64,000 nt of DNA from an uncultured Gemmatimonadales bacterium (lineage in GTDB: Bacteria > Gemmatimonadota > Gemmatimonadetes > Gemmatimonadales > GWC2-71-9): NCBI GenBank assembly GCA_963828735.1, contig CAWHFW010000005.1, positions 1,632,001-1,696,000 on the forward strand, written 5' to 3'. The notes under the pieces are model-generated. The model made no database searches. It was not told where the DNA came from and was given only the letters and a program-made list of their open reading frames with translations. Shown here piece by piece: positions 3,811 to 42,801 of the stretch (position 1 is its first letter; each line of letters opens with the position of its first letter). The position numbers and the translations under genes are program-made.

Positions 3811-5297
3811 CGCGGTCTCTGCACGCGTTGGCGCTCGCTGTCCTCGCGGCCGGCTGCGCCGTCGGGCCCAGCTATCACCCGGAGGAGGCCGTTCCGCCCG
3901 CGACCAAAGTGGGAACGGCTCGCTCGAGCGACAGCACGGCCACCTTCTTCGATTCGCTGGCGGCGGCCCGGGCGGGTGACAGCGTCGCGGCGACGCCGCC
4001 GGTGCCGGCTCGGACCCTGACGCCGGACACGCTGGCGAGCCTCGCCTGGCTCGACCTGTTCCGGGACTCCACGATGATCGGCCTGGTGCGCACCGCGCTG
4101 GCGCAGAACCGCGATCTGCAGACCGCCGTGGCGAGGATCCGCGAGTTCCGCGCGGAAGTGGGCATCGCCCGCTCGCCGCTCTTCCCGGAGCTGAGCGCGA
4201 ACGGCAGCGTGAGCACCAACCAGGTCGCGGTGGGCGCGTTCCCGCCGACCTCGTACGACGCCTATCGCGTCACCGGCGACGTGGCCTGGGAGCTCGATTT
4301 CTGGGGCAAGACCCGCCGCGGCATCCAGGCGGCCAGCGCCGATCTCGCCTCGGAGCAGGAGGCGCAACGCGCGGTGGTGCTGTCGCTCGTGAGCGACGTG
4401 GCCACCGGCTACCTGTCGCTGCTCGAGCTCGACCAGGAGCGCACCATCGCCGAGCGGACGCTGGCCTCGCGTCAGGCGACGCTGGCCCTCGCGCGGCAAC
4501 GGTTCGAACAGGGACTGACGTCCGAGCTCGACGTGCGCCAGTTCGAGGCGCAGGTGGCGGTGCCGGCGGCGACCCTCGCGCAGACCGAGCGCCTTCGCGC
4601 CCAGCAGGAGCATGACCTCAGCCTGTTGCTGGGGGAGGCGCCGATGACGGTGGCCCGCGGCGGCACGCTGGTCGAGGCCGTGAGCGCGGTGACGGTGCCC
4701 GACTCGCTCCCGGGGTCCCTGGTGGCGCGGCGACCCGACGTGGCCGCGGCGGAGCGCGCCTACGCGGCGGCGACCGCGCGAATCGGCGTCGCGCGAGCCG
4801 CCCAGTTCCCTACGATCTCGGTCAGCGGGTACTACGGCTCGCAGGCGCCGAGCGCCGATGCGTTCCTCGGCGCGAGATCCGAGATCTATCAGGCGCTGGC
4901 CGGCGTCTCCTTCCCGCTCTTCACGGGCGGCCGGCTGGTCAACCAGACCCGCGCCGCCGAGGCGCGGGCCGAGCAGGCGCGAGCCCAGTACGAGCAGAGC
5001 GTGCTCGTGGCGCTCCGCGAGGCGAGCGACGCCTTGGTCGGCGTGCGCACCGCCCGTGATCAGGTGGCCGCGCAGGCCACCCAGGCCCAGGCCCTGCGCC
5101 GCGCACTGCAGCTCGCGGACCTGCGCTACCGGACGGGCATCGCGAGCTATCTGGAGGTGCTCGATGCGCAACGCGGGCTGTTCGATGCCGAGCTCGCCTT
5201 GAGCCAGGCCCAGCTCCTTCAGCTGTCGGCGGCGGTGGAGCTGTATCGGGCGCTCGGTGGGAGCTGGTCGGTGGAGGGGACGAGCGGACAGCGCTGA
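3807..5297 (+). CDS. Efflux outer-membrane factor lipoprotein (NodT/OprM family)
   Basis: ATGA overlap with the permease; lipobox LAAGC; WELDFWG, RRPDVAAAE, LYRALGGSW. Confidence 0.93.
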   Translation: MTRSLHALALAVLAAGCAVGPSYHPEEAVPPATKVGTARSSDSTATFFDSLAAARAGDSVAATPPVPARTLTPDTLASLAWLDLFRDSTMIGLVRTALAQNRDLQTAVARIREFRAEVGIARSPLFPELSANGSVSTNQVAVGAFPPTSYDAYRVTGDVAWELDFWGKTRRGIQAASADLASEQEAQRAVVLSLVSDVATGYLSLLELDQERTIAERTLASRQATLALARQRFEQGLTSELDVRQFEAQVAVPAATLAQTERLRAQQEHDLSLLLGEAPMTVARGGTLVEAVSAVTVPDSLPGSLVARRPDVAAAERAYAAATARIGVARAAQFPTISVSGYYGSQAPSADAFLGARSEIYQALAGVSFPLFTGGRLVNQTRAAEARAEQARAQYEQSVLVALREASDALVGVRTARDQVAAQATQAQALRRALQLADLRYRTGIASYLEVLDAQRGLFDAELALSQAQLLQLSAAVELYRALGGSWSVEGTSGQR

Positions 5298-40424: not shown

Positions 40425-40532
40425 TCAATCACGCTCCAGCACGATCGTCGTGCGGCGGGACGGCCGGCGGCTGAGGACGTAGGCCGCGGCGACCACGGCG
40501 GCGAGGGCGATTCCGAAGACGTACCACATCAT
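40425..40532 (-). CDS. 35-aa single-pass small membrane protein (below the ORF-track cutoff)
   Basis: GGAGG RBS; MMWYVFGIALAAVVAAAYVLSRRPSRRTTIVLERD; GC-rich third positions. Confidence 0.6.
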   Translation of the reverse strand: MMWYVFGIALAAVVAAAYVLSRRPSRRTTIVLERD

Positions 40533-40672
40533 TGGAGCCTCCGAGCGGGAGTGGGGTGAACCGACACGTGGGAGACACCGGCCTGCGACACCGCAAGGCC
40601 ACCTATCGGCTTCGGTGTTTCTTCGGTATCTTACGCAGGTCCACCTCCGATCACCCCTGCCGTGTCGTCCTC

Positions 40673-41227
40673 ATGCCGAAAAGCTCCTACGATTTCGACC
40701 CCGAGAGCTACGCGCCGGTGGCAGCGCGCGTCGAGCTCTTCTATGAGAAGTACCCTGCCGGCCGCATCCTCACCGAGCTGGTTCAGCACACCGACCAGCA
40801 GATCGTCTTCCGCGCCGCCGTCTACCGCACGGCGGACGACCGTGAGCCGGCCGCCACGGGCTGGGCCGCCGAGCGCGTGGGCGATGGCGAGATCAACGCC
40901 GTTGCCTGTCTCGAGAACACCGAGACCTCCGCCATTGGGCGAGCGCTCGCCAACCTCGGCTTCCTGGCCTCGCGGCTCCGGCCCAGCGCCGAGGAGGCGA
41001 CGAAGGCGGCCCGGGCCCGCACGCGCCTCGGCGCCGAGCCCGACCTGCGCCAGCTTCTCCGCACGGCCGAGCGGGCCGGACTCGACGCGGAGCGCGTCGA
41101 AGCCCTCCGGTCGCGAGTGGCCCGGGGCCTCACGCCCGCCGAGCTCGCCGAGGTGCAGCACGAGCTTCGTCGCTTCATCCAGCGGCGTATGGAGGATCAT
41201 GCCGCGCGCGCCGGCCGCGGGCCGTGA
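40673..41227 (+). CDS. Hypothetical protein resembling phage ssDNA-annealing proteins
   Basis: Y-x-x-VAARV...YPAGRI...ATGWAAE...LENTETSAIGRALANLG; resemblance recalled from phage SSAP-like proteins, not verified. Confidence 0.6.
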   Translation: MPKSSYDFDPESYAPVAARVELFYEKYPAGRILTELVQHTDQQIVFRAAVYRTADDREPAATGWAAERVGDGEINAVACLENTETSAIGRALANLGFLASRLRPSAEEATKAARARTRLGAEPDLRQLLRTAERAGLDAERVEALRSRVARGLTPAELAEVQHELRRFIQRRMEDHAARAGRGP

Positions 41228-41313
41228 CGATGTCGCTGGGTGGTGTCACATAGGGAAGGACGTGAGTCACGGGGCTTCGACTCGCGACGCCTGACCCACG
41301 ACACTGCCGACCT

Positions 41314-42060
41314 ATGGATCCTCGACGACCCCCTTGGCGCGAAGTAGCCGGGCGACGACCCGCAATGGGAGACGTGGCGCTGGTGGCCGCGCTCCGGTGC
41401 GAGGACGAAGGCGCTCTGCGCGAGTTCTATCTGCGCTTCCGTCCCATGCTCCTGGCTGCCGCCGGCCGCCTCGGGGTGGATGGCGGTGAGCGCGAGGTGC
41501 TGGCCGACGACTGCCTGGCGGACGTCGCCGTCCATCTCATCACCTCGAGTGCCCCGCCGCCCCGCTGCCTGCCGGCCTACCTGACGCGGAGTCTTCGCAA
41601 TCGGGTGCTCAACGGCGCACGGGCGCGGACCCGCGCCGAGCGTCGGGACGCTCACGCCGTGCACGCAGGTCCGGACGAAGGCGAGATCGCGGCCTGCTCG
41701 GAGCACGCCCGCCGCGCGAGCGGCGAGCCGGACGCCCCGCCGCTCTCGCCCGTGCTCGAGCGCCTCGCCACCGCCCTCGAGGCCACACTGGGCGAAGACG
41801 ACCATCTCCTTGCCGTATGGATGAGCCACTGCGCTCCCCAGCGCGACATCGCGGTCTGGCTCGGCATCGCTTACAAGGCGGCGGCCAAGAGGATCGAACG
41901 TCTCCGCGAGCGGCTGCAGCTCGCGGCGCTGCGTCACGTCGAAGGCACGGACGGCGAGGAACGCCGGGAGCTGCTCACCTTTCTCGGACGGGCCACGCTC
42001 GCACCGGGCCCGGCCGCCCGGCTCGCGGCCGTGCGCGATTCTGTGGAGGAAACGGCATGA
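41314..42060 (+). CDS. ECF-like sigma-70 factor (start 41314 or 41365)
   Basis: Region-2-like DVALVAALR...DEGALREFY...AYLTRSLRNRVLN; region-4-like HTH QRDIAVWLGIAYKAAAKRIERLRERL. Confidence 0.72.
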   Translation: MDPRRPPWREVAGRRPAMGDVALVAALRCEDEGALREFYLRFRPMLLAAAGRLGVDGGEREVLADDCLADVAVHLITSSAPPPRCLPAYLTRSLRNRVLNGARARTRAERRDAHAVHAGPDEGEIAACSEHARRASGEPDAPPLSPVLERLATALEATLGEDDHLLAVWMSHCAPQRDIAVWLGIAYKAAAKRIERLRERLQLAALRHVEGTDGEERRELLTFLGRATLAPGPAARLAAVRDSVEETA

Positions 42061-42749
42061 GCGACAGGAACGAGTGGGAGCGCGATGCGGTCGTCTGGCT
42101 CGCCGGGCGGCGCATCGAGGCCCGGGAAGGAGGCGGCCCGGCCCGCCACGCGGGGTTCGATCGCTGGCGCGCGGCCGCGGAGCGGGAAGCGGCCGCGGCA
42201 CGGTTCGCCGAACGGGTACGGGCGCGCGTGGCGACGGTCGGTCGCGGCGTGCGTCGCATCGACCACGCCCCGGAGCCGATTCGGGTCGGCCTGTCGGGCG
42301 CGCTCGCGACGACGCTCGCGGCCGCTCGAGGCCTTGGCGCGGCGCCGCTGGTCGAGCTTGGCGTCGCCGCTGGCACGGGCCGCGAGCTGCTCGACGAGGC
42401 GTGCGAGGTCTGGGTCGCGCTGCCCGCCGATCTCCCGGCCGGCCGCTACGTGGCGATCCGGGTGGTCGGAGACAGCATGGTGCCACTGCTCCATTCCGGG
42501 GACGTGGTCCTCGTGGACCTCGACGGCGCCGTCGCGGCCGGTGCGGTGGCCGTGGCCCGGCATCCGGACCATGGCTATGTCGTGAAGCGGGTAGGACGGG
42601 CGCTGGAGTCGGGGTTTTTCCTGGAATCCTTCAACCCGGCGTACCCGAGCCTCTGGCTGGCGGCGGGATCGGGGAAGCTGCTCGGGCCGGTGGTGCTTCG
42701 GTGGTGCGACCATCGCCCGTCGAAACCGAGACTTGCCACCGCTCCGTAG
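42057..42749 (+). CDS. S24-family (LexA/UmuD-type) autopeptidase with no evident N-terminal HTH
   Basis: GGAGG RBS and ATGA overlap; cleavage loop PLVELGVAAGTG, catalytic Ser in RVVGDSM, Lys in YVVKR, LESFNPAYP. Confidence 0.88.
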   Translation: MSDRNEWERDAVVWLAGRRIEAREGGGPARHAGFDRWRAAAEREAAAARFAERVRARVATVGRGVRRIDHAPEPIRVGLSGALATTLAAARGLGAAPLVELGVAAGTGRELLDEACEVWVALPADLPAGRYVAIRVVGDSMVPLLHSGDVVLVDLDGAVAAGAVAVARHPDHGYVVKRVGRALESGFFLESFNPAYPSLWLAAGSGKLLGPVVLRWCDHRPSKPRLATAP

Positions 42750-42801
42750 TCAGGGCATCATCCGCGCCGGGCGAATGCCCGGCCACCTCATCGGAGTGTC
42801 C

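Follow-up and report, generated by a model that had tools for sequence, protein, structure and literature searches.

How might a sigma factor whose gene is coupled to that of a LexA-like, probably self-cleaving protein be placed under the control of DNA damage, and which sites would it read once set free? The question is raised by a stretch of 64,000 nucleotides (hereafter the window) from an uncultured Gemmatimonadales bacterium of the lineage GWC2-71-9 (assembly GCA_963828735.1, contig CAWHFW010000005.1, positions 1,632,001 to 1,696,000 of the forward strand), in which an operon encodes a protein reminiscent of phage single-strand annealing proteins (SSAP), a sigma factor of the extracytoplasmic function (ECF) type and an S24 peptidase. 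An earlier note on this DNA had proposed that autocleavage of the S24 protein, set off by activated RecA (RecA*) or by the adjacent SSAP-like protein, releases the sigma factor. Our analysis supports this interpretation in part: the module is real, conserved and unusual, and the reading to which we give somewhat better than even chances is that RecA*-triggered self-cleavage of an S24 anti-sigma factor frees an ECF sigma factor that would read compact promoters. A LexA-type box, a compact cognate motif (motif 2) and a divergent small gene are features that go beyond the earlier note. The elements of the locus are the following:

40425..40532, minus strand: divergent hydrophobic small open reading frame (ORF) of 35 aa, likely a target of the sigma factor in this genus
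40574..40590, minus strand: inverted copy of motif 2, TGTCGC-N5-GGTGTC, facing the small ORF
40610..40626, plus strand: LexA-type direct-repeat box nTTCGG-N5-nTTCGG, before the first gene of the operon
40627..40632, plus strand: -10-like hexamer TATCTT immediately 3' of the box, likely of a housekeeping promoter
40673..41227, plus strand: accessory gene, whose product joins a phage-type N-terminal domain (SSAP-like, unconfirmed) to a helical C-terminal region
41231..41247, plus strand: copy of motif 2 upstream of the sigma gene, just 3' of the stop of the first gene, likely autoregulatory
41314..42060, plus strand: gene for a divergent sigma factor of predicted ECF fold, with sigma-2, a linker carrying a conserved (C)SE..R(A), sigma-4 and C-terminal helices
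42057..42749, plus strand: gene for an S24 autoprotease, candidate self-cleaving anti-sigma factor, with an N-terminal helical hairpin (residues 3-22 and 32-61)

The three plus-strand ORFs were confirmed, with 184, 248 and 230 aa respectively; a second in-frame ATG at 41365 would give a sigma protein of 231 aa. The coupling described earlier is borne out at the locus, where an ATGA is shared by the stop of the sigma gene and the start of the S24 gene. Each of the three genes is present as a single copy in the source genome (4.78 Mb, G000), which also encodes RecA, ClpX and a canonical LexA, the latter being its sole further S24 match. In a search with a profile of 150 sigma sequences, 24 of the 401 genomes from the phylum had a match, as did 109 of 401 from a single family of this order (the latter count takes in three genomes flagged as unpublished, G535, G667 and G625, which no other claim uses); close homologues carry Gemmatimonadales labels, and with a smaller profile at E<=1e-30 the sigma family comprises at least 301 clusters at 50% identity. 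Loci were taken from part of these matches, and 100 genome loci were left after dropping duplicates, the window itself and two weak matches; those cut off by contig or locus ends were treated as unassessable. The S24 gene lies directly 3' of the sigma gene in 88 of 92 assessable loci, the reading frames overlapping in 74 of 82 pairs (by four bases in 50), the box was called in 85 of 97 (shuffle rate 0.5%), and the SSAP-like gene is found 5' of the sigma gene in 70 of 94. In the four loci where the S24 gene is missing, box and SSAP-like gene are missing too, in line with the coupling. Because of these co-occurrence counts across the 100 loci, the core of the module is made of sigma, S24 and box, and the SSAP-like gene is accessory; of the triad supposed earlier, the sigma and S24 genes do co-occur widely and the third member does so less regularly.

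The protein encoded by the middle ORF matches TIGR02937 at E 1e-6, below the cut-off of that family, and its profile matches include CnrH (E 1.7e-7) and SigH (E 3.3e-5). Its AlphaFold2 (AF2) model (predicted local distance difference test score, pLDDT, of 87; predicted template modelling score, pTM, of 0.51) comprises sigma-2 and sigma-4 joined by a linker and, beyond them, two further C-terminal helices; the top Foldseek rows are all ECF sigma factors, though none reached E 0.001, and so are most of the top VIA rows, with Z up to 11.1. According to the model and these searches the protein folds as an ECF sigma factor (sigma-2 plus sigma-4, without sigma-3), in agreement with what had been read from its sequence earlier. 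Among 79 members, R196 is invariant and aligns to R176 of Escherichia coli sigmaE, whose R171 and S172 align to columns 191 and 192; in the sigma-2 part, Y89 (72/79) and an N, H or R at position 96 (74/79) correspond to W81 and N88 of Mycobacterium tuberculosis sigmaH, N100 aligns to N92 of the same protein, and an acidic D/E66 is kept in 70/79. The extra helices, residues 214-247, carry a conserved E219/F223/R226. Conserved residues predicted to read the -35 and -10 elements, as expected of a member of the ECF family, are present; the spacer of 14-17 bp expected of its cognate motif is not, a point to which we return below.

As for its partner, PF00717 is matched at residues 102-207 (E 9.5e-16), and the earlier statement that the catalytic elements are intact holds for VAAG (103-106), GDSM (138-141) and VKR (176-178) and extends across the family, A104, G106, S140 and K177 being found in 79/79 members and A105 in 78/79. 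The residues that precede the predicted cut are VAA in 60 members, IAA in 11, AAA in 7 and IAS in 1, so that 78/79 would end in -AA. The model (pLDDT 86) consists of two helices, 3-22 and 32-61, followed by an S24 domain matching the LexA and lambda CI folds. No helix-turn-helix (HTH) family was matched at E<=0.05 by any of the 79 members, which upholds the earlier remark on the N-terminus, and an Atlas search with residues 1-100 gave no match. Residues 1-39 have a net charge of zero or below in 66/79 members, and the conservation within the hairpin of W37 (74/79), F34 (65/79) and L15 (65/79) would fit a binding surface. The gene adjoins that of the ECF factor and is predicted to be co-expressed with it, as expected of a candidate anti-sigma factor. 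When covariation between the two proteins was computed (79 pairs, effective number 45), the top pair, sigma Y39 with S24 F50, reached z 8.0, little above the 6.1-7.1 of five shuffled pairings, and 65 of the top 100 pairs fell in the N-terminal part for 48 expected. One family member of 400 aa, P0273, carries a tandem duplicate of the S24 domain. A search of viral contigs with the S24 protein gave no relative.

The link with DNA damage, which was earlier only inferred, gains independent support from the LexA-type box shared with recA and lexA. The box lies 5' of the first gene of the operon in 35/35 loci examined, and in L006; it is followed in relatives by a -10-like hexamer TATATT or TATAAC, and a TTGAC-type -35 abuts it in L076, L081 and L074. 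A matrix trained on the operon sites gave 14 matches above 12 bits in the source genome. The top ten include the operon itself, high by construction, and six sites 5' of DNA-repair genes, by best match an Rv2578c-type radical SAM gene, error-prone DnaE (dnaE2), a TIGR03916 radical SAM gene, recA, lexA and uvrA (sites C5:2333560, C5:2311460, C5:463182, C5:70181, C4:195230 and C5:647822; L063, L065-L068, L071); the other three (C5:2313070, C5:2291855, C6:117397; L067, L069, L070) are strong matches without a recognisable repair neighbour. In 5/5 genomes chosen for having no sigma match, recA is preceded by one box and lexA by two. Since the box also precedes recA, lexA, uvrA and dnaE2, including in genomes devoid of the operon, it is very likely that the operon is repressed by LexA. 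The predicted sites outline an SOS regulon of Gemmatimonadales; radical SAM and error-prone polymerase genes are given as typical SOS members in an excerpt of PMC7739468, and no description of this box for Gemmatimonadota was found in the literature searched, as judged from search listings. In its direct-repeat form and its period of 11 the box resembles the alphaproteobacterial LexA box GTTC-N7-GTTC (PMC3323433, in part), from which it differs by its sequence, nTTCGG-N5-nTTCGG. We rejected the idea that it is the promoter of the sigma factor itself, for it occurs in both orientations (both are seen before uvrA, dnaE2 and radical SAM genes) and in sigma-less genomes.

Which sites would the sigma factor then read? 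The exact sequence TGTCGC-N5-GGTGTC occurs at two sites in 4.78 Mb, both at this locus and each oriented toward the gene downstream. A genome scan allowing one mismatch returned 27 matches, 7 of them followed by a ribosome site and an ORF, among which only the small-gene copy was convincing. In 20 entries, two of them duplicates and one the window, motif 2 is 58-65 nt away from the start of a conserved ORF of 33-35 aa; among congeners, the small gene is present in 1/1 with the sigma gene and 0/4 without it, and likewise motif 2 occurs twice in one sigma-bearing congener and is absent from 4/4 sigma-less ones. Beyond this genus the sequence of the motif differs by lineage, variants including TGTAAC-N7-CGTC, and often a neighbouring gene is preceded by a further site of the variant seen at that locus: of the 78 loci with a call, 42 have such a second copy, a figure that includes duplicates and some chance matches inside genes. 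Outside this genus the putative targets are, by eye, mostly predicted membrane or secreted proteins. A recurrent secreted-looking protein (motif like 'PVVVFRF..G...DPLD..SF.V.VDG.DRT') is encoded 3' of S24 in L164, L166, L168, L004, L161 and L174, and in several cases a second motif 2 copy stands in front of it. With a hydrophobic peptide and membrane or secreted proteins as targets, the output may therefore be an envelope change or a release and not repair.

That motif 2 belongs to the sigma factor is indicated by the residues with which its bases vary. Calls were made with a matrix blind to bases 4-11, which recovered the motif in 58 of 79 paired loci (3.9% in shuffles), and columns were ranked on 27 representatives under 60% identity. 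Among sigma columns, base 4 covaries most strongly with 192 (z 7.2-7.7) and base 6 with 191 (z 3.2-3.3), and bases 14-15 both rank column 100 first (z 9.3-10.1 and 6.4-6.7); in other words, a column of the sigma-4 recognition helix tracks the upstream half of the motif, and a sigma-2 column its downstream half. Across the 58 loci, V, I or L at 192 goes with A4 (16 both, 42 neither, 0 exceptions), N100 goes with T14 (40 both, 17 neither, one exception), and R/K191 is concordant with AC at bases 5-6 in 52/58; five loci without a blind call (L091, L097, L133, L156, L162) combine V192 with a TGTAA or CGTAA start. The structural literature, as far as excerpted, reports that R171 and S172 of sigmaE contact the -35 element (PMC1540707) and that N92 of sigmaH contacts the -11 pair (10.1101/534826). 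The weight of the argument lies in the agreement between the top columns and those predicted from structure, and not in z alone. A further pairing, residue 195 with base 5, was concordant in 34/41, and its independent pairs split; it was dropped as evidence. It is highly probable, on these grounds, that the sigma factor and not S24 reads motif 2.

The geometry of the motif is unusual. Its halves stand 7 bp apart, from the upstream hexamer to the four-base -10 core, and with T16 taken as the -10 base of the sigmaH numbering, the hexamer would lie at about -25 to -20. The spacer is rigid (N5 in 78 of 107 regions, N4 in 4, N6 in 2). TGTCGC was considered as an ordinary -35 with a -10 located 16-17 nt downstream and this was rejected, nothing being conserved at that distance. 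Published ECF promoters have spacers of 14-17 bp in an excerpt of PMC5758882. ShbA, one of the top fold matches, depends little on sigma-4 for its activity, and the available portion of PMC12019637 describes no such compact element. Among soil metatranscriptomes, ten contained 7-13% of the words; for four of them the contigs gave low, patchy depth and revealed no start site. On balance we lean toward motif 2 being a true RNA polymerase promoter on which sigma-4 would be shifted by about 9 bp toward the -10 from its usual place. If true, the distance from the upstream element to the -10 would fall short of that in any described ECF promoter by almost one helical turn, and sigma-4 would need a new arrangement on the polymerase.

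Taken together, these observations lead us to propose a two-key damage switch. DNA damage would generate RecA*, LexA would be cleaved and the operon expressed, as the box suggests. The S24 hairpin would hold the co-translated sigma factor inactive, to judge from coupling, charge, conservation and one fusion, and we regard this anti-sigma role as moderately probable. From the residues present, S24 would then cleave itself at Ala105-Gly106 on activated RecA, and RecA* as the trigger seems to us likely. An -AA end can act as a degradation tag, and the last fragment of the anti-sigma factor RseA ends in -VAA; by analogy with RseA, the N-terminal fragment of S24 ending in -AA might be removed by ClpXP, an even bet in our opinion, clpX being present in the source genome. 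The freed sigma factor would drive its own gene and local targets from TGTCGC-N5-GGTGTC. It would in this way reinforce its own expression (positive feedback), and its regulon would be small and local, made up of the sigma gene and one or two neighbouring genes for membrane or secreted proteins.

Several observations weigh against this scenario or parts of it. Four sigma loci lack the S24 gene. The Glu that lies four residues before the catalytic Lys has a role in the cleavage of LexA, and it is replaced by Gly in 78/79 S24 members (an Asp or Glu stands two residues earlier in 75/79), so that cleavage could be slow or differently controlled. Class I anti-sigma domains adopt a four-helix fold; the unbound S24 model shows two long helices, and the hairpin may be of another kind. 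The fusion of sigma-2 to the S24 hairpin, a truncated second gene found right after an intact operon (L174:4638-5129; 33.5 bits for a best shuffle of 6.6), is the only such case found and possibly a decoy or a deletion product. The putative target genes are not DNA-repair genes. With respect to motif 2, 21 of 79 paired loci gave no call, the matrix had been built at N5 and produced up to 42 calls in 107 regions when set to other spacers, the 7-bp spacer is far outside the range reported for ECF promoters, and the usual place of sigma-4 is on the beta flap tip (an excerpted source has sigma-4 of sigmaH wrapped on the flap tip and a preference for a 17-bp spacer). The tree on which covariation was followed is poorly supported, with 6 changes per trait and 1 independent pair on well-supported branches, and the sign test on these changes is not significant; moreover, the S24 column V103 reaches z 8.6 with base 15, and kinship therefore inflates z.

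How else could the same facts be explained? It may be that the sigma-fold protein is no longer a subunit of RNA polymerase and acts as a single-piece transcription factor (activator or repressor) that binds the 17-bp site and remains under the control of S24. The 7-bp spacer, so far from 14-17 bp, would then cease to be a difficulty, and the C-terminal helices 214-247 with their E219/F223/R226 could occupy the flap-binding face; however, the downstream half remains ECF -10-like (GTC/CGTC followed by T or A), varying together with the equivalent of sigmaH N92, the equivalents of W81 and N88 as well as the acidic D/E66 are retained in most members, and both motif 2 copies face the downstream gene, all of which makes this explanation unlikely in our view. 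The odd geometry might otherwise call for a helper, and S24 could be a positive cofactor like UmuD, whose cleaved piece is needed by the sigma factor, for instance to place sigma-4 on the short-spacer site. Near-obligate 1:1 coupling of the two genes fits a two-subunit factor, and the fusion in L174 is compatible with either sign of control; yet motif 2 persists before sigma genes devoid of S24 (L150, L100), the -AA tail suggests that the N-terminal piece is removed, and the coupled downstream partners of ECF factors are usually inhibitors in the excerpted text of PMC8103513, so that we hold a cofactor role for rather improbable.

The persistence of motif 2 where S24 is missing also speaks against S24 being a repressor that binds the motif through a non-HTH domain, with the sigma factor as a bystander. 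S24 proteins are usually repressors, and one S24 column does covary with base 15; but the hairpin is acidic or neutral, and the motif is non-palindromic and tracks the known DNA-reading positions of the sigma factor, which leaves this repressor model hardly any credit. There remains the SSAP-like protein, which, once bound to single-stranded DNA (of a phage, for example), might serve as co-protease and make the system anti-phage or a RecA-independent sensor. Its gene is found in 70/94 loci and its domain is mostly viral in its matches; against this, the gene is missing in 24/94 loci of which 19 keep S24, the LexA-type box makes it likely that RecA* acts upstream anyway, and SSAP activity is unconfirmed. 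The trigger suggested in the earlier note is weakened accordingly and appears to us quite doubtful, and nothing supports the anti-phage role attached to it, none of the three proteins (0/3) having a match in PADLOC.

We return to the proposed self-cleaving anti-sigma factor and to its place among known systems. E. coli sigmaE-RseA shares with it the ECF fold and a partner gene directly downstream; the partner here is soluble, has its own Ser-Lys protease and a two-helix hairpin, the likely signal is DNA damage and the cognate motif has a 7-bp spacer. The cytoplasmic fragment of RseA is removed by ClpXP in a final step (PMC8103513, in part). LexA, lambda CI and UmuD have in common with our protein the S24 fold, the Ala-Gly site, the Ser and the Lys. 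In contrast to LexA and lambda CI, it is devoid of HTH and has Gly in place of the Glu before the Lys; unlike all three, it is coupled to a sigma factor and not to an operator or umuC, in a genome which has a separate canonical LexA. It also differs from UmuD by a structured N-terminus of about 100 aa where UmuD has a short unstructured arm, and the next gene in the window encodes an M1 peptidase (no genome-wide umuC search was made). The TGTAAC-N7-CGTC variants carry an AAC-type -35 and a CGTC-type -10 like the Bacillus subtilis sigmaW/X/M/V promoters, described as tgaAAC with CGTA/CGTC in an excerpt of PMC5758882, with a spacer of 7 bp here and 14-17 bp there.

Neither an ECF factor with an S24 partner nor such a short spacer was found in the literature searched, through search listings and with subscription papers mostly uncovered. 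The available main text of the ECF reclassification (Casas-Pastor 2021, PMC7826278) contains 0 occurrences of Gemmatimonad, LexA, S24, peptidase, DNA damage or SOS, while its supplementary group descriptions could mention this sigma family, and the five modes of ECF control in the accessible part of a review (PMC8103513) include no self-cleaving partner. What is new lies in control and site geometry; the folds of the proteins are familiar ones, and the anti-sigma role is putative. It is a tentative suggestion, and one we would not call probable, that the module represents a new class of switch, in which a RecA*-cleaved S24 anti-sigma factor forms a positive arm of the SOS response and an ECF factor initiates from promoters with a -35-type element at about -25 to -20. 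Through a self-cleaving partner, RecA* would be able to turn on genes directly. The 7-bp spacing, for its part, would imply either an arrangement of the polymerase not described so far or the conversion of a sigma fold into a one-piece transcription factor. The residue-to-base code being already predicted, the parts could serve as an orthogonal switch gated by DNA damage.

The first gene deserves a few words of its own. The motif which had evoked SSAP, LENTETSAIGRAL, is present at residues 80-92 of the 184-aa protein, while the label itself is unconfirmed: its first ~110 aa match phage families to which no function is assigned (phrog_11717, E 9e-26). In common with Rad52/Sak/Mgm101 proteins it has a phage-type domain; it is assigned to a dsRBD-like Atlas family (PF27148, score 0.97) and counts one phage ORF annotated 'mgM101-like' among 15 records; it differs from them in having no credible match to a structure of the Protein Data Bank (PDB) and none to a Rad52 Pfam family. 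In L002, L003, L060 and L061 a 12-bp unit of variable copy number lies between this gene and the sigma gene, and motif 2 sits within the 3' end of the first gene. A clade composed of L117, L124-L126, L131 and L134 has box, sigma and S24 with neither the SSAP-like gene nor a motif 2 call.

The locus is flanked in the window by genes for a DegP-like protease and the M1 peptidase. The latter was rejected as a member of the module, since it has its own -35/-10-like site (TTGCCA-N17-CATCAT at 42733-42761), likely its promoter, and other genes follow S24 in other genera; this site overlaps the 3' end of the S24 gene, and the conservation of the S24 tail in this genus may stem from it. In L146 (3248-7156) and L150 (3200-7064) a sigma gene without S24 or box is coupled, by eye, to a gspE-gspG-gspF-like gene run, and L150 retains motif 2. 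In L058 a truncated sigma gene is followed by unrelated genes, on a contig that is possibly chimeric. A second S24-like gene lies 5' of the sigma gene in L137 (ORF 4311-5126, minus strand), apparently without the Ala-Gly site, GDSM and VKR. Finally, the stop of the S24 gene is directly followed in L074 and L076 by TGGCACG-N4-TTGA, which is similar to a sigma-54 promoter.

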